From: Candidatus Nomurabacteria bacterium
GTDB lineage: Bacteria > Patescibacteriota > Saccharimonadia > Saccharimonadales > VXPC01
Length of the DNA: 64,000 nucleotides
Direction of reading: 5' to 3'
NCBI GenBank assembly: GCA_020631905.1
Contig: JACKGQ010000001.1
Coordinates: 485,854 to 549,853, forward strand
Part shown: piece after piece, positions 1,869-43,193 of the stretch
How positions within the stretch are numbered: position 1 is the stretch's first letter
Layout: every line of letters starts with the position of its first letter
The notes under the pieces: generated by a model
Database searches by the model: none
Told to the model about the DNA's origin: nothing
The model's input: the letters and a program-made list of their open reading frames with translations, nothing else
Made by a program: the position numbers and the translations under genes

Positions 1869-4517
1869 CTAGCGTATGCTTATTTCCTGATTTTCTTGGA
1901 GCACGTCGTTTTTTTGATTTTTTTGGGCATTATTATTAATTTGTTGATGTTCGCTATTTGTACGGTTAATCGATGATTCGGTTTTCTTGTTTTTTGAACG
2001 GCTGCGCTTGCGTTTTCTTTTTGGTTTTACTACCCTAGCATCGTCGTTGCCATTGACTGCTTTAGAATCACCTAGACCTAGACCCAGAACGTTATTAATC
2101 GCCAGTTTTGCTGTACTAAGTTTGCCGTTGTTTGGTTGATCGGTTTTTGGAGTAATGTGCTTCGTATTGGTGTTCGTGTTCGTATTTTGTACAGGTTTTG
2201 AATCGTCTGTTGTGGCCGCCTGTTGGCTCTGTGTGACCATTTCTTCGACTTCTGATACCGGCTTAGCGTATGTCTGCCTAGAGTGTTCGATAATCGCACT
2301 ACTAAAATCATTTTGAGTCTCGGGGATTACTAATGTTCGTCCACTAAACGCTGGTGCTTTTTCGCCGCCAATAGTCATGGTTGTAACAAAACTACGATTC
2401 GCCAGCTGGATAATGTCTTGGGCTGTAAATTGTGGCGTGTAATACTTTTCTAGGAAAGGAGCATCGTCTGGGCTGACTCGAAATGAGACCATCGTACCAA
2501 CGTTTCCAAAAACTGCTCCGCGTACAACATCACTCATCTGAGATATATACTGGTTTGCCACGGTCAGGTTGAGGCCGTATTTGCGAGCTTCGCTTAAGAT
2601 TACCGCAAAGCTATCGGTGGCAAAGTTCTGAAATTCGTCGACGTATAAGTAGAATGGGCGTCGGTCTTCGATGCGAGGAATATCGGCACGGCTCATGGCT
2701 GCTAACTGGACTTTAGTAACCATCATTGCTCCTAAAATGGCGGCGTTATCTTCACCGATCAGGCCGCGAGATAGGTTCATAATCAGTATCTTGCCTTCAT
2801 CCATAATTTTACGGATGTTAAAGCTACCTTTCGGCTGTCCAATTATATTGCGGATCATTGGATTGGCTGTGAATGCGCCAACTTTGTTTAAGACTGGGGC
2901 GACCGCCTCGGTCGCATATTTTTCGTTCCAACTCGCAAACTCTGTTACCCAGAAATTCTTAACCACTATATCTTGAATATGATCAATAACATCTCTTCTA
3001 AAGAATTTGTCTGTCAACATGCGTGTAATATCGAGCATGGTCGAATTGGGATAATCGAGCAAAGCGAGTAATGTATAGCGCAATATATACTCAAGTCGTG
3101 GTCCCCAGGAGTCGAACATACGCTTCATAACTCCTACAAGCTCTGAGCTGATCATCCCTTTCTGGGTATTATCGTAAACCTCTAATGGGTTGAACCCGAT
3201 CGGATAGCTCGCATCGGCGGGGTTAAAGTAAACAACATCTTTAATACGGTGCTCAGGGATAAACCGCATATTATTAACGGCAAAATCGCCATGGGGATCG
3301 ATAATCGCGTAACCCTGATCGTAAAACACATCACTCAGCGCTAGTAGCTCAAGTAGTCCACTCTTGCCTGTACCGGTTTGGCCTAAGATGTAGATATGTC
3401 GTCCTCGGTCAGATCTGAGGGCGCCAAAAATCTCGTTGTGCCCGCGAAAATTAGTGACACCAAACAAGCTAATCGCACTATCGTGGTGTTTGCCCTGAGA
3501 TGGTAGATTTGCCGGTGGCTCGGCGGTTTTACTGTTTGCCCAATCAATATTGGGTGTTTCGACACTTGTGTGCGGTAAATGATATAAACTAGCGACTTCC
3601 TCGATATTTAAGATGTAGCCGTTATCTTTAAATTCGCGAGCGGCATAACTTTGTACGACCTCAGGATCGTAGCTAGTGCGTTTACTCGTAAACCCGTTTA
3701 AGTTGGTGGTATTAAACTGCTTAAACGTGCCAACCATCGCTTGTAAGCGTAAACGAGCTGTAATTTCGTTATTGCCAGCATAGATAATCCTAACCTTAAC
3801 CTGATAGCCAAGCTTTGTGCTCTTTGTCTCGATAGCACTAACTCGGCCGCGATCACGCTCGCTAAGTTGCTTCTCGCCGCCGGGCTTTTGGCTATATTCA
3901 GGAACCTTCATTGGCGCGCCTAGTATCTGGGCAATATTTGTACCAAACCCAGAGCCTCCCCCACCCTTGATTTTCTCAATCATTTTAGCGCCACGTTTAT
4001 GCCAATCATCCTGGATCGGCCTTGCGATAATCTGGATCCACATTTCTTCGTTGGGGTCGTCGAGCTTGGCTAGAGTGGCAGTCATTGCTGCCAACGGATC
4101 GACTTCGAAACTCGGAAAGGTTTTAATTGGAATAGTTTCGTTATCGGTTAAGACGAGTTCAGTACTATGAACTACGGTTTGCTGTAGTTGACGACCCGCA
4201 TAGTCTTGCTCTAGTTCTTGGATCTGAACAGATGGATACTGCGCATAAATTTGGCCTTCGACAAAACTCTGGAGTGACCGAGGTGTCCAGACATAAAAGC
4301 GAATCCGTTTATCGATTGCGGCAATCTCGAAACTGATGTGCTCTTGTTCTTCTGCCCCACCCCAGCGTTTGCGCGGACGTAAGATTCCATGTAGGGCTGC
4401 AAACATCTGTTCGGCAGCTAACTCTTTTTTATCGTTGGCTCGTGGTACCTCGAGTAACAGTAGTACACCCTCTTCCATCACAAAGACTTCCCTGCACTTT
4501 TTTGAAGGTGTAAACAC
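1869..4517 (-). CDS. Large P-loop ATPase of the TraD/VirD4/DUF87 type (type IV secretion coupling-protein-like) with a disordered basic C-terminal tail
   Basis: Walker A GQTGTGKSG, IIDPHGDF, and Walker-B-like FYLYVDEFQNF. The tail contains NTNTNTNTK and KPKRKRKRSRSKNKK. Confidence 0.6.
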   Translation of the reverse strand: MFTPSKKCREVFVMEEGVLLLLEVPRANDKKELAAEQMFAALHGILRPRKRWGGAEEQEHISFEIAAIDKRIRFYVWTPRSLQSFVEGQIYAQYPSVQIQELEQDYAGRQLQQTVVHSTELVLTDNETIPIKTFPSFEVDPLAAMTATLAKLDDPNEEMWIQIIARPIQDDWHKRGAKMIEKIKGGGGSGFGTNIAQILGAPMKVPEYSQKPGGEKQLSERDRGRVSAIETKSTKLGYQVKVRIIYAGNNEITARLRLQAMVGTFKQFNTTNLNGFTSKRTSYDPEVVQSYAAREFKDNGYILNIEEVASLYHLPHTSVETPNIDWANSKTAEPPANLPSQGKHHDSAISLFGVTNFRGHNEIFGALRSDRGRHIYILGQTGTGKSGLLELLALSDVFYDQGYAIIDPHGDFAVNNMRFIPEHRIKDVVYFNPADASYPIGFNPLEVYDNTQKGMISSELVGVMKRMFDSWGPRLEYILRYTLLALLDYPNSTMLDITRMLTDKFFRRDVIDHIQDIVVKNFWVTEFASWNEKYATEAVAPVLNKVGAFTANPMIRNIIGQPKGSFNIRKIMDEGKILIMNLSRGLIGEDNAAILGAMMVTKVQLAAMSRADIPRIEDRRPFYLYVDEFQNFATDSFAVILSEARKYGLNLTVANQYISQMSDVVRGAVFGNVGTMVSFRVSPDDAPFLEKYYTPQFTAQDIIQLANRSFVTTMTIGGEKAPAFSGRTLVIPETQNDFSSAIIEHSRQTYAKPVSEVEEMVTQSQQAATTDDSKPVQNTNTNTNTKHITPKTDQPNNGKLSTAKLAINNVLGLGLGDSKAVNGNDDARVVKPKRKRKRSRSKNKKTESSINRTNSEHQQINNNAQKNQKNDVLQENQEISIR

Positions 4518-9688: not shown

Positions 9689-10279
9689 ATGACCCAGAAT
9701 CTTTCGGATCTACAAGTTGATCCGCGGTTGTTAAGCACGCTGGCAGAGATGCTCAAGCGGATTGGCAACGGCGGTCTCGACTCGCGTGTTGCGGCTGTGC
9801 ATCTTCAGGCCTTGCTCGAAGGCAAGCCTTCGAGTGAATCTTCGTTGGCCGATAGCGCGGTCGGCAAGTGGGAGGGAGTTGTCGTGACTGAGAGCTTTCT
9901 GAGCCAGACGATGGTTTATAAGGGCCAGCTGCTCAAGCGCCACCGAAATGGTGGTGGCTGGGTGCCGGCCGAGCAGTCGGAGGGCGATGAGTCGAAGCCT
10001 TATGTGGACGAAACGGCCTATGTCGGCCCGTTTGCGATGGTCTTCGGCAACGCTCGAGTCTTCGGCAACGCTTTGGTCTGCGGCAACGCTCGAGTCTTCG
10101 GCAACGCTCGAGTCTTCGGCAACGCTTTGGTCTGCGGCAACGCTGAGGTCTCCGGTGAAGCTCGAGTCTCCGGCAACGCTCGAATCTCCGACAACGCTCG
10201 AGTCTGCGGCAACGCTCGAGTCTTCGGCAACGCTGGGGTCTCCGGTGGAACTAGTCTCGAAACTGGCTCTCACGGCTAG
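9689..10279 (+). CDS. Left-handed beta-helix (hexapeptide-repeat) protein, YdcK-like
   Basis: RBS AGGGAGG. Eleven consecutive hexapeptides of the GNARVF/GNALVC type follow a GGGWV...YVDETAYV lead-in. About 60% GC against a ~45% backbone. Confidence 0.6.
   Translation: MTQNLSDLQVDPRLLSTLAEMLKRIGNGGLDSRVAAVHLQALLEGKPSSESSLADSAVGKWEGVVVTESFLSQTMVYKGQLLKRHRNGGGWVPAEQSEGDESKPYVDETAYVGPFAMVFGNARVFGNALVCGNARVFGNARVFGNALVCGNAEVSGEARVSGNARISDNARVCGNARVFGNAGVSGGTSLETGSHG
10046..10243. repeat. Tandem array of 11 x 18 bp (in-frame hexapeptide units), with a near-perfect higher-order duplication
   Basis: Unit GGCAACGCTCGAGTCTTC. Several units are identical at the DNA level, and the block cttcggcaacgctcgagtcttcggcaacgctttggtctgcggcaacgct occurs twice. 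Confidence 0.9.
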
Positions 10280-10353: not shown

Positions 10354-11586
10354 GTGCTTGCGTTAATGTTACGGTTTGTCCAGAATAGTTCCGATATGGG
10401 CGAAAGATACAAACCAGTTCCGAAAACCGACTCTGACAAGGATTTAATCCTCCCAGGTGTTTATCCAAGTACAAATCGCAAGATTTCGCCACTGTGCAAT
10501 TACCGGACCTTTACTAGACGTGGACGCGAAGAAGCAGAAAGGTTTGACATTGACCGTCTCGGTGCGGCGTTTGGACTGGCGTCTGGGCCCGAACATAGTT
10601 GCTCTGGGGCAACAGAATTTTGTGCAAACGACTGCTATTCAATCGAAGCCGAACGCACTTTCAGCGGAACTGGCAACAGCATGCGCCGTAATTACGAGCA
10701 ACTTAAGGCCGCCAGTTTCGAACAGATGCGCGCGACTTGCTCGGCTATCCTCAATGGCTACAATCTTCGATGCGAGCGAATGGGCGTGCCAGCAGACAAG
10801 CGAATCTTCCGCTGGCATTGGGCTGGCGATATTTTTAGCCGCGACTACGCCCGGGCAATTGCCGCTGCCTTTAATGAGAACCCAACGGTTATGGGGGCGA
10901 TCTATACGAGAGTATATCAACCCGACTTAAATGTTGTGCCTGAGCTAATAAAAGCCCCTAATTTACGCGTTTTTTTAAGTGTCGACCCCGATAACCTCGA
11001 GCGGGCAGCCGAGGTATATCGAGAATATCATCGATCTGTCAGGTTGGCATTTTTAGGCCAAGATTATCACCACGGGCGCACACTAGCCGAGAAGATGGCA
11101 GGTTTGGGCGTTCCAGACCTAGACGTTACCCAGCTTGTCGAAGCCAGCATCGACAGCGATGGCCATATGCCATATTCGTATCCAGATTTATTGTACTGCC
11201 CTGAGCTATACCCGTACGGCAAAAAAAGGCGCGATGGCAGTCGAAGTTTTCTGAGCCTAACAGTTCCTGACTATGTTGAACTCAAAATTGAACAAGCAAA
11301 TGCAAGAGCAGAAGCACGAGAAGTCGACATTAGTCGAGTTAAGCATCGTGGAGCATGTTCGGCTTGTATGGCATGTTACAGCCATTCGGCACTCCACACT
11401 CGTCATGTAATCTTCGTTAAGAATAAAGAGATGCATAGTCAAAAAGGAACTCCTGGTGGTTTGTATCAAGCGGCTATGAGTGAAGTACTTGATGTGCCGG
11501 TGGAGATTGCCAGACGGCGACGACCAGCCAGCTTGGCGGTGGCCAATCAGGTAAGCCTCGAAGACCACCCTAGCCTGTTCGACTGA
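10354..11586 (+). CDS. Hypothetical protein, possibly a phage GP88 / Gp37-Gp68-like Cys-motif protein; start codon uncertain
   Basis: CSGATEFCANDCYS near the N-terminus and CSACMACYS near the C-terminus. GC-rich like its upstream neighbour. The family assignment is from memory only. Confidence 0.3.
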   Translation: MLALMLRFVQNSSDMGERYKPVPKTDSDKDLILPGVYPSTNRKISPLCNYRTFTRRGREEAERFDIDRLGAAFGLASGPEHSCSGATEFCANDCYSIEAERTFSGTGNSMRRNYEQLKAASFEQMRATCSAILNGYNLRCERMGVPADKRIFRWHWAGDIFSRDYARAIAAAFNENPTVMGAIYTRVYQPDLNVVPELIKAPNLRVFLSVDPDNLERAAEVYREYHRSVRLAFLGQDYHHGRTLAEKMAGLGVPDLDVTQLVEASIDSDGHMPYSYPDLLYCPELYPYGKKRRDGSRSFLSLTVPDYVELKIEQANARAEAREVDISRVKHRGACSACMACYSHSALHTRHVIFVKNKEMHSQKGTPGGLYQAAMSEVLDVPVEIARRRRPASLAVANQVSLEDHPSLFD

Positions 11587-27450: not shown

Positions 27451-27867
27451 ATGATTGCAAGATATTCTGCAGCTGAGATGTTTGGAGCTCCTATAGATAA
27501 CGTTGCGAACGTTAATCTCGAAGATGGTTCACTGATAAGGTTAATGGAGTCTTATGATATCCAGCCGCGCGAGATACCTACTGATCCAACAGACATAACA
27601 CCTTATTACTGGAAGCGTCCCGCATTCCGTTACTTTCTCGCCCTTGCGCATCCAGAGGGTCCGGCCACTGTAGATATGTTGCCTGTGGATGAGGACAGTG
27701 AGAATTATTTACTTCTTGGAGCAGAAGGCTTGGGAGCTGCTGTACAAGCTAGAGTTCGACATATTGAAGTGCCAACTGATCAGCAAGTAGTCGCTATTAT
27801 TGGGCCTGGACCGAGATTTCCAGATAAGCTTAGCGTCCATGAACTAATAGTGAGCGACGAATACTAG
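27451..27867 (+). CDS. Hypothetical protein (138 aa), first gene of an orphan pair
   Basis: Its stop lies 2 nt before the next start. Confidence 0.55.
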   Translation: MIARYSAAEMFGAPIDNVANVNLEDGSLIRLMESYDIQPREIPTDPTDITPYYWKRPAFRYFLALAHPEGPATVDMLPVDEDSENYLLLGAEGLGAAVQARVRHIEVPTDQQVVAIIGPGPRFPDKLSVHELIVSDEY

Positions 27868-27869
27868 TC

Positions 27870-30569
27870 ATGCGTTTTTCCCGTCATCAGCAACCAGAAA
27901 TCGGTATTGAACCACTCAGCCAATCAGATAGAGAGTCGTTTCCGGCTGTTATATATGAGCAACAAGCAACTTCGATAAATGACGCTACGTTACTAATTGA
28001 AGCGGTTGGAGTAGCTAGAGCCCTGAATCTGCCTTTCGCTATTGATGTCGATACCAGCGATGAAGGGTTAATCCAAGCTGTGGTTAGAAGCTCAGCTAAA
28101 GATAGGTTTGAGGCTCGTATACACAGTGCATTATTTCACGGTACATCAGCTATGATATGTGAGCATATGCCTGACCCGCAAACTCGTGATGAGATAGGTG
28201 CCACATTAGTACGGAGTATTGCTCAAAGCGCAATCGAGCAGATAGTCCGAGATGAAGATCTAGAAAAAGGTTTCGGGATTTTTTACTCAGGTCTGCGATG
28301 GCATACTGATCAGGAAAAGTTTGTATCAACGCTTTTTAAAAGTGCGGCTGAACTTGATTTTGAACGACTAGACCAGATGGTTACCACTGGTGAACATATA
28401 CTCGCCATTTCATACGGCATCGAGCATGGCGTGTCTTGGGATACTACCAGAGAATGGCGTAAAATGACCGCCGAACAAGTATTGGAGGCGCATCCGGAAT
28501 TTGACTACCGCAAACTTCAAGATCCAGAGTTTAGAGCTACTGATGAAGGAAAAGCTTTAGAAAAAGCTTATAATGACCATGTTGGGGAAGAGTTGGTACG
28601 ACGCTATAGAACCACTAGAGCCAATATCGATAGCGAAGGAAAAGTAATACCAAAGCCAATACTACCATTGGCTCGATTCCCATTAATTGAATCACTGATC
28701 GTAGATGAAATTCGGATGATAAGTCCTAAGACTAAATATAACTTTGGGCCGAGTGATGTATCTGGTTTAATTCTAGACTCGGACAGCTTAAAGGCTCAGC
28801 AGGCACTTGTGGCAGCTGTAACAACGAGGATTGCTCCCGAGCAACGACATGTGATTGACGGTCCTGATGAGCTTCAACAGAAACGAGGCATTATCATCGA
28901 CATTCTGCGCACATATCAAGACGAGACAGACCCAAAAAGAAAAGCGCAATTCAAAGATCAGATTATCAAAGTAATTGAAGCATATACTAGGGACGGAAGA
29001 GTCGCTGCTGACGTACGCGCCGAATACTACACAAGCAGCACCGACCGATACGTTTATGGACAGGATGTCCGTGCCGTAAGAAATATTTTGGGCGATATTT
29101 TGAAAGCTGGTCTTGCCTCACCGCACGCACAAGAAATAGTCGGTCGCTTGATGCAGGTCACAACTGGAGAATTAACTAAAGAGGTTGATCCAATTTCTCT
29201 AGGTTACGAAGAATTTGAAGAAGCGATATTGGAATCGGTATGGTTAGTTGATGAGCAATCTGACCCAGACTTTATAGAAAGTATAGCGGCTAGAATGTTC
29301 GGTCGCGATTTGGCGGCTAAGATTCGTTACGTTATTTGTATGCGAGCTGAGGCAAAAATGAAATCTAGCCAGCCCGAAGTAGTATTAGCACATAAGAAAT
29401 GGGCAAACAACTTTGCTCCTTTTGATAGTCAAGAAGCCAAAGATTTGAAGCAAGCATATCTTAGCGCCGACTCCGAAGGCCAAGCTTTACGCGATAAAGC
29501 CGATGCCGCTATGAATGAAGTTCTGCTTACACTGATAGAGAGACTTGCTTTTGATCCTGATTCTATTAATGCAGAAAATAGAATACGAAGCTTAATACAA
29601 AAGCTTCGTCTGGGCAACTCATCTGATATGGAGCAGCTACCAGATACATACTACATGCTTATGGAGTTTGCCCGAGATCCAAGAGTAACGAGCTCTACTA
29701 GAGCGAGTATTCTGTGGAGATTTGCGGAACATTACAAATACGCAGCTGACGGGTTAGCCGCAAGACAAGTAACCAAGATTATCATTGATGGCTATCATTT
29801 AATGCTAGGTGACCCCAACCTGCCGTTAAGTGTTCCTGATCACGGTGTTAGCGATGGGCTATATGCCATCAATCAACTAGCGTCTCATAACGTTTTCAAG
29901 CAAGCAGATGAGACACAGTTGTTGGAGCTTTCCCGATATCGTTTCGCTCTATTGGATCTTATTCAAAGATTCACCGGCAGACAACTAACTTCTGGAAGAC
30001 TTGAGGATATTGATTTGAGTGCGGAAAAAGCAGCAGAAGCCGAAGACAACCGCACCACTTATCATATTGAATCTGTTGTGCGCAGTTTTCAAAAACTTGA
30101 AAAGCAATACGAAGAATTCCTGTACCTAGAAGAAGTAAGGCGAGTGCCTCACGTCTACTATCCTTGGGTGTTAAGACAGTTAGTCCCGTTCTGGCAGAAG
30201 ATGCAATGGGAAGTTAGTCCAGGCAACAGACCAAGTTATGACATAACAAGATTGCACAAAACAATTGAAGACTTAATATCAAGTAGACTAGTTGTTGAGC
30301 CAGGACATGAGTTCGACACAAGCTTTGACCCGATGGACGATGGGCATATTGATGAGCTGCTTGTCGCTTGCTATGAGCAGATGGTTGTCCCACACGATAT
30401 CAAAAACAAGCAGACAGTCTGGACAGAAGGAATGTCTTTCATGAATTTGGCTACTACTCTGATGCCTGTAAAGTTGCTCGAAAGGCTCAAAGCAAAATAT
30501 GGCGAAAATCACGGCTTAGTTAAACTAGTGATTAACGAACAAAAAAGATTCAGTCAAGATGAAGAGTAG
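27870..30569 (+). CDS. Large hypothetical protein (899 aa), helical, with no TM helix or signal peptide
   Basis: Uninterrupted 2.7-kb ORF with no recognised motif. Confidence 0.65.
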   Translation: MRFSRHQQPEIGIEPLSQSDRESFPAVIYEQQATSINDATLLIEAVGVARALNLPFAIDVDTSDEGLIQAVVRSSAKDRFEARIHSALFHGTSAMICEHMPDPQTRDEIGATLVRSIAQSAIEQIVRDEDLEKGFGIFYSGLRWHTDQEKFVSTLFKSAAELDFERLDQMVTTGEHILAISYGIEHGVSWDTTREWRKMTAEQVLEAHPEFDYRKLQDPEFRATDEGKALEKAYNDHVGEELVRRYRTTRANIDSEGKVIPKPILPLARFPLIESLIVDEIRMISPKTKYNFGPSDVSGLILDSDSLKAQQALVAAVTTRIAPEQRHVIDGPDELQQKRGIIIDILRTYQDETDPKRKAQFKDQIIKVIEAYTRDGRVAADVRAEYYTSSTDRYVYGQDVRAVRNILGDILKAGLASPHAQEIVGRLMQVTTGELTKEVDPISLGYEEFEEAILESVWLVDEQSDPDFIESIAARMFGRDLAAKIRYVICMRAEAKMKSSQPEVVLAHKKWANNFAPFDSQEAKDLKQAYLSADSEGQALRDKADAAMNEVLLTLIERLAFDPDSINAENRIRSLIQKLRLGNSSDMEQLPDTYYMLMEFARDPRVTSSTRASILWRFAEHYKYAADGLAARQVTKIIIDGYHLMLGDPNLPLSVPDHGVSDGLYAINQLASHNVFKQADETQLLELSRYRFALLDLIQRFTGRQLTSGRLEDIDLSAEKAAEAEDNRTTYHIESVVRSFQKLEKQYEEFLYLEEVRRVPHVYYPWVLRQLVPFWQKMQWEVSPGNRPSYDITRLHKTIEDLISSRLVVEPGHEFDTSFDPMDDGHIDELLVACYEQMVVPHDIKNKQTVWTEGMSFMNLATTLMPVKLLERLKAKYGENHGLVKLVINEQKRFSQDEE

Positions 30570-30602
30570 CTAGCTTTTATCTTACATCTAAAGTCACTAG
30601 TA

Positions 30603-30622
30603 TTGGTGACTCCACGGAGAAT
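30603..30622 (-). repeat. 20-bp copy of the tRNA-Glu 3' end (T-loop to CCA): an att-like footprint
   Basis: TTGGTGACTCCACGGAGAAT is identical to 30743-30762. It sits in the loop of an 8-bp inverted repeat (CTAGTATT/AATACTAG). Confidence 0.8.
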
Positions 30623-30709
30623 ACTAGGGTATATTGCGCCTTAGCAAAGTAAACTTTGCCGGGCAATAGCGAACTCTCGTCGGAGCTCGGAGTTTCTGCG
30701 AAACCAACC

Positions 30710-30737
30710 AAGCAAAAAGCCCACCTTAGGTGAGCTT
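30710..30737 (-). terminator. Intrinsic terminator downstream of tRNA-Glu
   Basis: On the minus strand: AAGCTCACC-TAA-GGTGGGCTT followed by TTTTGCTT. It contains a G.U pair that is valid only on the minus strand. Confidence 0.65.
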
Positions 30738-30743
30738 CTTCCT

Positions 30744-30818
30744 TGGTGACTCCACGGAGAATCGAACTCCGATTGCAAGATTGAGAATCTTGTGTCCTAA
30801 CCGTTAGACGATGGAGCC
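30744..30818 (-). tRNA. tRNA-Glu (anticodon CUC), with CCA encoded
   Basis: Cloverleaf read by hand: acceptor GGCTCCA/TGGAGTC, D-arm GTCT..GGAC, anticodon stem CAAGA/TCTTG with loop TTCTCAA, T-arm CGGAG-TTCGATT-CTCCG. Confidence 0.9.
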
Positions 30819-31004
30819 ATATTTGGCTTAGACTTAAAATGTACGCTAGTTTAATAAACCGTGCAAGATATCTAACGGTTAAGATGTCCTACCCATGGTC
30901 AGATTGACAAATTGTTGTCAATCAGCCGTCGGCACACCTCGTATCGGGCAATAATTTGCACCGGTACTCCGGTCTTGCAAAAAGCCACTGGCTTTTCTCA
31001 CATC

Positions 31005-31025
31005 AGACGATGGAGCCATATTTGG
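31005..31025 (-). repeat. 21-bp copy of the tRNA-Glu 5' end plus its upstream flank
   Basis: AGACGATGGAGCCATATTTGG is identical to 30806-30826. The downstream sequence does not fold as a tRNA and runs into a small terminator-like hairpin (AAAGCCA-GT-GGCTTT). Confidence 0.8.
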
Positions 31026-31232
31026 TTGCGGCCTATTATAACTTAATGTCTGGCAAAAAACACCTAACGCCTTCGATATATCTGCAAATGGATTAGTACC
31101 CTGCACTACCCAACTTGCTAAAAAGCTCATGTCGCATACTTGGATCGGGGTCTTTAGATTTATGTCTTTCAGATATACAAATTTACCAAGCATAATATTT
31201 TTGTTAGGTCTTGACATGGCTTGTCAACAATG

Positions 31233-31253
31233 CTACCTTGTAAAGCAAGGTAG
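31233..31253. promoter_or_regulatory. Perfect inverted repeat CTACCTTG-N5-CAAGGTAG just upstream of padR (candidate operator)
   Basis: Read directly. It ends 6 nt before the padR ATG. Confidence 0.5.
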
Positions 31254-31259
31254 TAATTT

Positions 31260-31622
31260 ATGAAAGATACTGAAACTAATCTTCAAAAATATATTCAACA
31301 GAATTCGCTCTCGATGCGTAAAGGCTTGATTGAATATTGTGTGATGCAAATTTGTAGTGGTAAGCCCGTTTATGTTGGTGAGATTGTCACAAAACTAAAA
31401 GATACGGATCTGATTGTGGTTGAGGGTACGCTGTATCCCCTACTCTCTCGCCTAGCCAGCGAAAAATTGGTCAGTTACGAATGGAAAGAGTCGAAAACAG
31501 GACCACCCCGCAAATATTATAAGTTGACTGTTGATGGCCATGGCGTGCTCGAAGCTTACAACAGCCAATGGAAAGAGCTAAAAAAAGCCGTCGATGGAAT
31601 AATTAAAGGAGTTAAGAAATGA
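31260..31622 (+). CDS. PadR-family transcriptional regulator
   Basis: GTLYPLLSRLASEKLV...PRKYYKLT signature. Confidence 0.85.
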   Translation: MKDTETNLQKYIQQNSLSMRKGLIEYCVMQICSGKPVYVGEIVTKLKDTDLIVVEGTLYPLLSRLASEKLVSYEWKESKTGPPRKYYKLTVDGHGVLEAYNSQWKELKKAVDGIIKGVKK

Positions 31623-33240: not shown

Positions 33241-33807
33241 CTACAGTAGTTTACGCCAGAAGAACACGCTACTTCCCCAGCGGCTCGGGATACTAGCTAA
33301 ATTGTGTTCGAACACCGGTCCTGGTCCAAAGCGTGAGCGCACCCGACTCTCACCCAAGACAAAACCGAACTGGAGCGTTGCTTCGTGGCCATAAATTGGG
33401 TGTTCGCCGGTGTAAGCGACGATATCACCAGGAACAACTTTTGCAGGATCAACCAAGGTGAAACCCTTAGAGCGCAAGAAGTCGCGGGTATCGTTGTAAA
33501 GGTATTGACTGGCAGGGTAAGCTTGTCTGGGCACACACCAAGGTTCGCCTAAAATCCGCCCGAACACATATTCGCCGCAACGATCGAATAGATTATTGTC
33601 GTCGAGGCTGTGTGGCTCAAATATGGCGTATCCGGGTAACTCTACCAGACCCTCGAAAGCTTGGTCGGCGCGACGCATATCTGACATTAGTCTATGCGCT
33701 AGGGCTTCTTCCTGATGAACTTGGTCGAGCACTGCTTGGGCTGCTTGGCGTTCAGGGCTATCTGGTAACGCAAGTTGCAGGGCATTGTGGTTATCGAAAC
33801 CGATCAC
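33241..33807 (-). CDS. Hypothetical protein (188 aa), co-transcribed with the WhiB-like gene
   Basis: 4-nt overlap with the upstream gene. No motif. Confidence 0.5.
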   Translation of the reverse strand: MIGFDNHNALQLALPDSPERQAAQAVLDQVHQEEALAHRLMSDMRRADQAFEGLVELPGYAIFEPHSLDDNNLFDRCGEYVFGRILGEPWCVPRQAYPASQYLYNDTRDFLRSKGFTLVDPAKVVPGDIVAYTGEHPIYGHEATLQFGFVLGESRVRSRFGPGPVFEHNLASIPSRWGSSVFFWRKLL

Positions 33808-34151
33808 GGTCGATTGCCTACATGGACAGTTTGAGGTGTAAGGTCTTCTGTTCTAGAGGCTCGAATAGCTTTGGCTAGAGCCTTTGCGGTACTTAGATTG
33901 AGTCTAACAGCTTGCCATTGGCCGCGCTCATAGTTGGTTAGGCCTGCAACAATGCCTTCCGCTTGGCCATTAGCCTGGCTACCGACAAAATAGTCGATGC
34001 AATCAGCTAGGTTTGGGCACTTGCCACATACCAATCGGCCAAGACCTTTGGCTTTACCATCGGATCGGGTTGTTTCTAGCATAATCTGACCACTGTTGTG
34101 ACTGCGGCATGTACTCCGACTTCTTGCGAGCGGTGTAATTTGTTCGGACAT
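33804..34151 (-). CDS. WhiB-like (Wbl) Fe-S transcription factor candidate
   Basis: Cys pattern C-x26-C-x2-C-x5-C (STC...LVCGKCPNLADC), followed by GIVAGLTNYER, which parallels G[VI]WGG..ER of Wbl proteins. Confidence 0.5.
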   Translation of the reverse strand: MSEQITPLARSRSTCRSHNSGQIMLETTRSDGKAKGLGRLVCGKCPNLADCIDYFVGSQANGQAEGIVAGLTNYERGQWQAVRLNLSTAKALAKAIRASRTEDLTPQTVHVGNRP

Positions 34152-43107: not shown

Positions 43108-43193
43108 GCCGTGGTGGCGGAATTGGTATACGCGCACGACTCAAAATCGTGTTCCTTTCAGGATTGAGGGTTCAAGTCCCTCCCGCGGCACCA
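43108..43193 (+). tRNA. tRNA-Leu (anticodon CAA), long variable arm, CCA encoded
   Basis: Acceptor GCCGTGG/CCGCGGC, anticodon stem CACGA/TCGTG with loop CTCAAAA, T-arm GAGGG-TTCAAGT-CCCTC. Confidence 0.9.

Follow-up and report, generated by a model that had tools for sequence, protein, structure and literature searches.

Exact partial copies of both ends of a tRNA-Glu gene in a Patescibacteria genome: possible scars of separate insertions

A regenerated tRNA gene together with a displaced tRNA fragment marks the ends of genomic islands (PMC4383910, PMC9897764), and the Islander catalogue collects the scars that tyrosine-integrase elements (prophages, genomic islands and integrative elements) have left in tRNA genes (PMC4383910). 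Partial tRNA genes are pervasive as att remnants (PMC9897764), and the attB of Ms6 lies in the T-loop of a tRNA-Ala gene (PMC1762012). In the islands of Prochlorococcus treated in the tycheposon paper, degenerate partial tRNAs are the remains of old integrations (bioRxiv 10.1101/2020.12.28.424599). Phage T4 carries SegB, a free-standing homing endonuclease, in its tRNA cluster (PMC2330249).

The DNA studied here is a 64-kb window (the whole stretch that was analyzed) of a Candidatus Saccharibacteria/Patescibacteria metagenome-assembled genome that forms a single 770-kb contig. Within it, a tRNA-Glu gene lies in an intergenic region of 690 bp (30570-31259), which contains the following features, listed by their positions in the window.

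30603-30622, minus strand: displaced 3' end, an exact 20-bp copy of tRNA positions ~58-76 plus 1 flanking nucleotide, matching 30743-30762
30623-30742, minus strand: insert Y, 120 nt between the 3' repeats, with the tRNA terminator hairpin (~30714-30740) and two further hairpins
30744-30818, minus strand: intact tRNA-Glu(CUC) gene with CCA encoded (ARAGORN; Rfam RF00005, 61.3 bits with the gathering score at 29)
30827-31004, minus strand: insert X, 178 nt between the 5' repeats, with a candidate terminator-like hairpin and a candidate promoter, both read by eye
31005-31025, minus strand: displaced 5' stub, an exact 21-bp copy of an 8-nt leader (CCAAATAT) plus tRNA positions 1-13, matching 30806-30826
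31035-31040, minus strand: perfect TATAAT box 17 nt upstream of the 5' stub, read from the sequence

A preliminary description of this DNA had reported an intact tRNA-Glu(CUC) gene with a copy of its 3' end downstream and of its 5' end upstream. ARAGORN and Rfam both confirmed the gene, and the two copies proved to be exact, far beyond chance and at the distances that it had given. Copies of the 20-bp repeat, TTGGTGACTCCACGGAGAAT, lie at 30603-30622 and 30743-30762; the repeat comprises the last three nucleotides of the T-loop, the 3' strands of the T-stem and of the acceptor stem, the discriminator (A), CCA and one flanking nucleotide; 121 nt separate the tRNA's 3' end from the distal copy, with a spacer of 120 nt between the two repeats. 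The two copies of the 21-bp repeat, AGACGATGGAGCCATATTTGG, are those at 30806-30826 and 31005-31025, with 186 nt from the 5' end of the tRNA to the upstream copy and a spacer of 178 nt between the repeats. Neither repeat has a further copy in the 64-kb window at up to three mismatches, and no match was obtained in 100 shuffles. A degenerate third copy of the 20-bp core was likewise sought in the window and not found, the best candidate matching at 15 of 20 positions compared with 14 of 20 in shuffles. The edges of both repeats are abrupt, and the sequence just outside each copy is unrelated. Read along the minus strand, the locus consists of the TATAAT box, a 17-nt spacer, the 5' stub, the terminator-like hairpin, small hairpins including a 9-bp one, D-arm scraps, the candidate promoter, the leader with the intact tRNA, a strong hairpin and two others, the 3' stub and a small hairpin.

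The reading that we favor, at a probability of roughly 0.55, is that a functional tRNA-Glu(CUC) gene carries the scars of at least two separate insertions into an ancestral gene. Each insertion would have supplied a replacement for the gene end that it displaced, pushing the old end outward as a short exact repeat, and the gene would have stayed intact because a replacement copy arrived each time. Exact and nonrandom repeats, abrupt edges, unrelated flanks and a significant inverted scrap of the D-arm (described below) all speak for insertion; at 120 and 178 bp, the inserts are very small for relics of elements, which speaks against it. Insertion as the origin, the enzymes and the order of events are what we infer from this arrangement, and nothing mobile remains, so the locus would be a fossil rather than an active element.

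On the 3' side, the repeat pair with its 120-bp insert has the geometry of a scar left by a tRNA-targeting integrase (attL/attR). Recombination within the 20-bp core, from T-loop to CCA, may have inserted DNA of which just 120 bp (Y) survives; Y would now supply the terminator, and the segment at 30603-30622 would be the old 3' end. The strong hairpin that follows the tRNA, GAAGCUCACC-UAA-GGUGGGCUUUUU (~30740-30714), lies in Y. Folding of the RNA from 30575-30743 on the minus strand gave -57.8 kcal/mol (z = -3.5 against shuffles), with the 3' stub paired with Y in the minimum-energy structure. Promoter and terminator assignments at this locus were made by eye and from RNA folds, a consensus scanner having called none. 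Neither the rest of the window nor phage and plasmid records nor viral contigs contained anything similar to Y.

The 5' side is less easily matched to an integrase. To our knowledge, a 5' duplication that includes a leader is no known product of integrases, and an upstream position is likewise atypical of them. The proposal in the preliminary description that the locus is the footprint of an integrative element is therefore supported in part: for the 3' copy, which has the position and extent of an att core, and not for the 5' copy, which carries an 8-nt leader, lies upstream and is not integrase-like. Here, an insertion at the boundary of the D-stem and D-loop, after position 13, would have brought the 178 bp of X and with it, apparently, a new promoter, a new leader and new positions 1-13. 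The old 5' stub (31005-31025) would then directly precede the terminator-like hairpin, which was read by eye as AAAAGCC-AGU-GGCUUUU at 30996-30979. A candidate for the present tRNA promoter, also identified by eye, consists of TTGCAC (30866-30861), a 17-nt spacer and TACATT (30843-30838); it agrees with the consensus at 8 of 12 positions, under the scan threshold. The TATAAT box at 31035-31040 is possibly the ancestral -10 box of the tRNA gene, judging from its sequence and position, although the -35 box is poor. The RNA of the X region also folded better than shuffles (z = -2.8). X resembles nothing elsewhere in the window, and in phage, plasmid and viral collections nothing but the tRNA itself matched; since both X and Y are unmatched in these collections, a foreign origin is not demonstrated.

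Several smaller features lie within or across X.

30871-30884, plus strand: inverted D-arm fragment of 14 nt, matching tRNA 30795-30808 at 13 of 14 positions
30885-30896, minus strand: possible direct D-loop/D-stem scrap, ATGGGTAGGACA, adjoining the inverted piece and by itself not significant by estimate
30902-30923, no strand assigned: perfect 9-bp hairpin, GATTGACAA/TTGTCAATC, with a 4-nt loop
30918-31217, minus strand: ORF99, 99 codons, passing through the 5' stub and judged spurious

An inverted D-arm fragment of 11 nt had been described previously; it is present and extends to 14 nt with one mismatch, and 200 shuffles of the flanks produced no comparable match. Also recovered was the 9-bp inverted repeat (30902-30923), which is near the level expected by chance for a 9-mer in 900 bp. 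The direct scrap matches positions 15-26 of the window tRNA at 10 of 12 nucleotides and the tRNA of a Patescibacteria locus (L020, below) at 11 of 12. These rearranged scraps would point to error-prone repair or template switching. With its leader, its apparent new promoter and these scraps, the 5' pair looks more like the result of a break in the D-arm region, which could have been repaired with filler DNA, or it could descend from a GIY-YIG-type cassette whose gene has been lost. No pseudo-tRNA was detected in X or Y, as Rfam searches at E values up to 10 returned the real tRNA only. ORF99 gave no Pfam match (E up to 10) and no PHROG match, and among 1.84 billion representative proteins it matched itself alone; it was treated as spurious because it has neither a homologue nor a domain.

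The genes on either side of the intergenic region were also considered.

27451-27867, plus strand: ORF of 138 amino acids adjoining ORF899, with no Pfam or PHROG domain
27870-30569, plus strand: ORF899, the left neighbor, convergent with tRNA-Glu
31260-31622: gene for PadR, the right neighbor of the intergenic region

A word-indexed search of 5.8 billion proteins returned no homologue of ORF899, nor did it match Pfam or PHROG, and by these searches ORF899 and its small neighbors are true orphans. To the right, PadR is followed by a PspC-domain protein, a WhiB-like protein, a two-component pair, a DUF3048 protein and GltX. The PadR-PspC gene pair is also present in distant relatives, making the right flank a conserved pair, and no tRNA was found at those distant loci with readable DNA (L024 and L025). 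The suggestion that orphan genes on both sides are leftover cargo is therefore unsupported: ORF899 is not enclosed by the repeat pair and sits past the distal 3' copy, with no core copy of an older island to its left, and the right flank is paired in relatives. In L024, the closest PadR-PspC locus with readable DNA, the contig ends in a region (L024:2-79, minus strand) that encodes the N terminus of a GIY-YIG protein (MAWFVYILRCADTSLYTGVTTDVLAR) divergent from PadR, in the place occupied in the window by the stub, X and the tRNA.

Other genes of the window were noted in passing. The WhiB-like protein (33804-34151, minus strand; Pfam Whib, E = 2e-5) is encoded in a genome of ~45% G+C, WhiB being a mainly actinobacterial and actinophage family. 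A TrwB/VirD4-like coupling protein of 882 amino acids is encoded at 1869-4517 (minus strand) and a phage GP88-family protein of 410 amino acids at 10354-11586 (plus strand), and short GACTCGAGCGTTGCCGAA-like repeats occur at 10079-10224 within or beside an ORF for a YdcK beta-solenoid. The other tRNA of the window, tRNA-Leu at 43108, has no tRNA fragments around it.

As had been noted before, no integrase is left at the locus: Pfam scans of every ORF of at least 150 amino acids in the 64-kb window identified no integrase, recombinase or transposase domain, and neither a nuclease gene nor a recognizable remnant of one was found in the window. A 19-nt core was used to scan genome, metagenome and viral collections from which the source genome is absent. 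The matches were tRNA-Glu genes of other phyla and a single viral contig, where the core falls in a 738-amino-acid ORF without any extension and was judged a chance match; no attP was identified in phages or plasmids. Close relatives were found in none of the genome, metagenome and protein collections searched. The PspC protein retrieved distant relatives only, at 26 to 32% identity, and a scan of genome contigs with it yielded no orthologous locus.

A parallel to the 3' side was found in Uhrbacteria, at loci unrelated to that of the window. One locus (L011) comprises a tRNA-Glu(CUC) gene, a terminator, a GC-rich insert of 135 nt, a copy of the tRNA 3' end with 26 nt exact (97% identity over 31 nt), and another terminator. 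In a second locus (L003), the same insert is present with its core decayed, and a third, orthologous one (L008) has the tRNA and the downstream gene common to the other two loci and no insert. Related Uhrbacteria thus differ in whether they carry this small insert between copies of the tRNA 3' end, as expected of an integration product. The insert corresponds to a three-hairpin RNA of 134 nt (L011:6925-7058, plus strand; L003:7542-7675, minus strand) in which all helix substitutions between the two loci are compensatory, four pairs having changed on both sides, and which matched no Rfam family. Homology of the window inserts to this element was considered and rejected for both. Covariance model R1 does not find Y, for which the sequence alignment was not significant. 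With default filters, R1 gave no match to X either, and the alignment scores of X were equalled in 43 to 75 of 500 shuffles; with filters off, the best match was to 30924-31003, in X, at 5.5 bits (E = 0.17).

For the 5' side, the nearest parallel found consists of five loci in which an intact tRNA-Glu gene is preceded by a 5' stub of tRNA-Glu, with a GIY-YIG ORF between the two.

L006:2090-2215, minus strand: GIY-YIG cassette of a Kapaibacterium
L020:1272-1665, plus strand: GIY-YIG cassette of a member of the Patescibacteria
L028:2960-3312: GIY-YIG cassette on a metagenome contig
L029:880-1219: GIY-YIG cassette on a metagenome contig
L030:92-560: GIY-YIG cassette on a metagenome contig

The layout of these cassettes is a tRNA promoter, the 5' stub, a GC-rich palindromic module in the D-loop, the 3' strand of the D-stem, the GIY-YIG ORF and the intact tRNA-Glu. 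Where upstream DNA was read, the stub comprises tRNA positions 1-21 or 1-22, to which L029 adds a leader of 13 nt. The ORFs are ~85 to 100 amino acids long, with Pfam GIY-YIG E values of 5.5e-15 (L006) and 3.6e-10 (L020), and in four of the five loci (L006, L020, L028 and L029) their final codons, APSSNG-stop, coincide with nucleotides 1-21 of the tRNA; the ORF of L030 terminates shortly before the tRNA begins. Neither an Rfam family nor a published description of such a tRNA-Glu cassette was found. These cassettes show that another kind of insertion makes 5'-side duplications at tRNA-Glu, leader included. In the window, position 13 of the stub is followed by ~107 nt of hairpin-rich DNA and then by the 12-nt direct scrap. 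X has no sequence similarity to the palindromic modules of L006 and L020, and a search of the window for a GIY-YIG ORF or remnant gave nothing above tblastn noise, ORF99 scoring a probability of 0.2% against the GIY-YIG profile in hhalign.

Two observations on related loci were made alongside. At L020:1296-1385, the inner part of the palindromic module, flanked by the 9-bp inverted repeats TCCGGCTAC and GTAGCCGGA, has the opposite orientation to its counterpart in L006 and L030, suggesting that the module is an invertible or cruciform element at the level of DNA rather than a structure formed by RNA. Two metagenome contigs (L019:354-7477 and L023:2296-4223) contain dense arrays of tRNA-Leu and tRNA-Glu genes (13 tRNAs in 7.7 kb), together with a sequence that ends in the tRNA-Glu 3' core and is uncalled by ARAGORN.

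The main rival to insertion, which we hold to be unlikely, is a local tandem duplication by slippage or unequal crossing-over of a unit made up of leader, gene and terminator, the outer copies of which were later trimmed by deletions. Such a segmental duplication would account for the 8-nt leader, which is not part of the tRNA, in the 5' repeat, and it fits the absence of mobile-element genes nearby. A similar hairpin end, GGCTTTTTGC, and later TATTGCCCG also follow both the stub and the gene in the same order (families D6 and D7). However, a duplication predicts homologous spacers, and X and Y are not significantly alike: their best local alignment is a 10-mer equalled in 36 of 1,000 shuffles, and their gapped score was equalled in 331 of 1,000, which argues against a simple tandem array. 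The repeats are moreover 100% identical while the sequence immediately outside them is unrelated, a pattern unlike that of old, decaying duplicates, and the DNA upstream of the stub does not resemble that upstream of the gene.

It is improbable that a single insertion of ~380 bp, bringing its own copy of tRNA-Glu, split an older gene whose halves are the outer fragments, as the preliminary description had suggested. The outer fragments do stand in the right order and orientation without overlapping (positions 1-13 and ~58-76), with a TATAAT box ahead of the 5' stub and a small hairpin after the 3' stub. Against this, the 42 central nucleotides of the old gene are missing, a layout that a simple insertion does not give, and the incoming copy would have had to share the 8-nt leader and the end sequences identically with the resident gene. 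In addition, the ends of the insert carry no inverted or direct terminal repeats.

We attach an equally small likelihood to the stubs having been kept as functional RNA, as decoys or as substrates for enzymes that process tRNA or add CCA. There are two candidates: a short RNA of leader plus stub that stops at the hairpin of 30979-30996, and an RNA from Y with a 3' end that could pair with an upstream GCUCC...GAG to form an acceptor-like helix with a free CACCA tail. Both stubs are identical to the gene despite lying in noncoding DNA, each of the two regions has a better fold than its shuffles, and the 3' stub is paired within the predicted structure of Y; in Uhrbacteria, the insert found at this position is indeed a structured RNA, with compensatory changes. 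Yet pairings of 5 to 6 bp in a minimum-energy fold arise easily by chance, Rfam at E values up to 10 finds nothing besides the tRNA, and no homologue of X or Y was found to lend comparative support. At the second Uhrbacteria locus (L003) the structured part is preserved and the tRNA-like tail is degraded, so selection there does not act on the tail.

An assembly artefact, by which a long-read consensus around the tRNA would be chimeric or mis-polished, has a negligible probability even though the genome is metagenome assembled and Logan contigs break within Y (30628/30657 and 30725), because short-read contigs obtained independently from two samples agree with the entire region at every base: L001 is identical to the window over 30725-31262 and L002 over 30628-31262, and L027 spans the DNA from ORF899 to ~30657 with the distal 3' copy included. 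The contig ends in Y fall at two 30-mers, 30628-30657 (where L027 ends and L002 starts) and 30725-30754 (where L001 starts). This is the pattern of branch points in a de Bruijn graph and hints at a strain variant or at a second, partial copy of Y elsewhere.

With separate insertions retained as the preferred origin, a broader picture can be sketched that we regard as rather doubtful: tRNA-Glu genes of CPR/Patescibacteria may be hotspots for miniature, protein-less insertions that have tRNA-end repeats, carry structured RNA as cargo and are mobilized in trans, and the 5' stub may be what is left of a GIY-YIG cassette, of a type not yet described, that captures the tRNA-Glu promoter and regenerates the gene. 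Y, perhaps X, and the three-hairpin RNA of Uhrbacteria would be candidate examples of such miniature insertions.

In itself, the locus is an ordinary, cargo-less example of a known phenomenon, unusual in that the gene is affected at both ends. Past integration of mobile DNA is commonly recognized by partial tRNA copies, and the locus adds little beyond this, other than that such scars occur even in a streamlined 770-kb genome of the symbiont type and that a single tRNA gene can be hit at its two ends. For annotation, the stubs are best labeled as attR-like fragments of a gene rather than as genes, and ORF99 is best left out of the gene calls. More promising than the locus are the side findings, namely, the structured RNA insert of Uhrbacteria and the GIY-YIG cassette that reads into tRNA-Glu across phyla.

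CIME-type elements are cis-mobilizable, lack an integrase and are flanked by att sites; known examples are kilobases long and are mobilized in trans. The window resembles them in that att-like direct repeats bound DNA without a recombinase of its own, whereas its inserts measure only 120 and 178 bp. With the tycheposon remnants of Prochlorococcus it shares partial tRNAs that lie beside a tRNA gene in a streamlined genome without an adjacent integrase; those fragments, in contrast, sit in variable islands of many kilobases, with element genes in other strains, and neither an island nor strain variation was seen at the window locus. The GIY-YIG cassettes, whose nearest known relative is T4 SegB, likewise have a tRNA-Glu 5' stub upstream of an intact gene, possibly with a leader, and hairpin-rich DNA after it, although their stubs end in the D-loop (position 21 or 22) and come with an ORF, whereas the stub in the window ends at position 13 with no ORF or remnant. 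Compared with the att scars of tyrosine integrases, the window differs in having only 120 bp and no element gene between the copies, and in its second, 5' repeat pair that includes a leader; it agrees with them in having, 3' of an intact tRNA gene, an exact and direct copy of the segment from T-loop to CCA, with the terminator between the copies.
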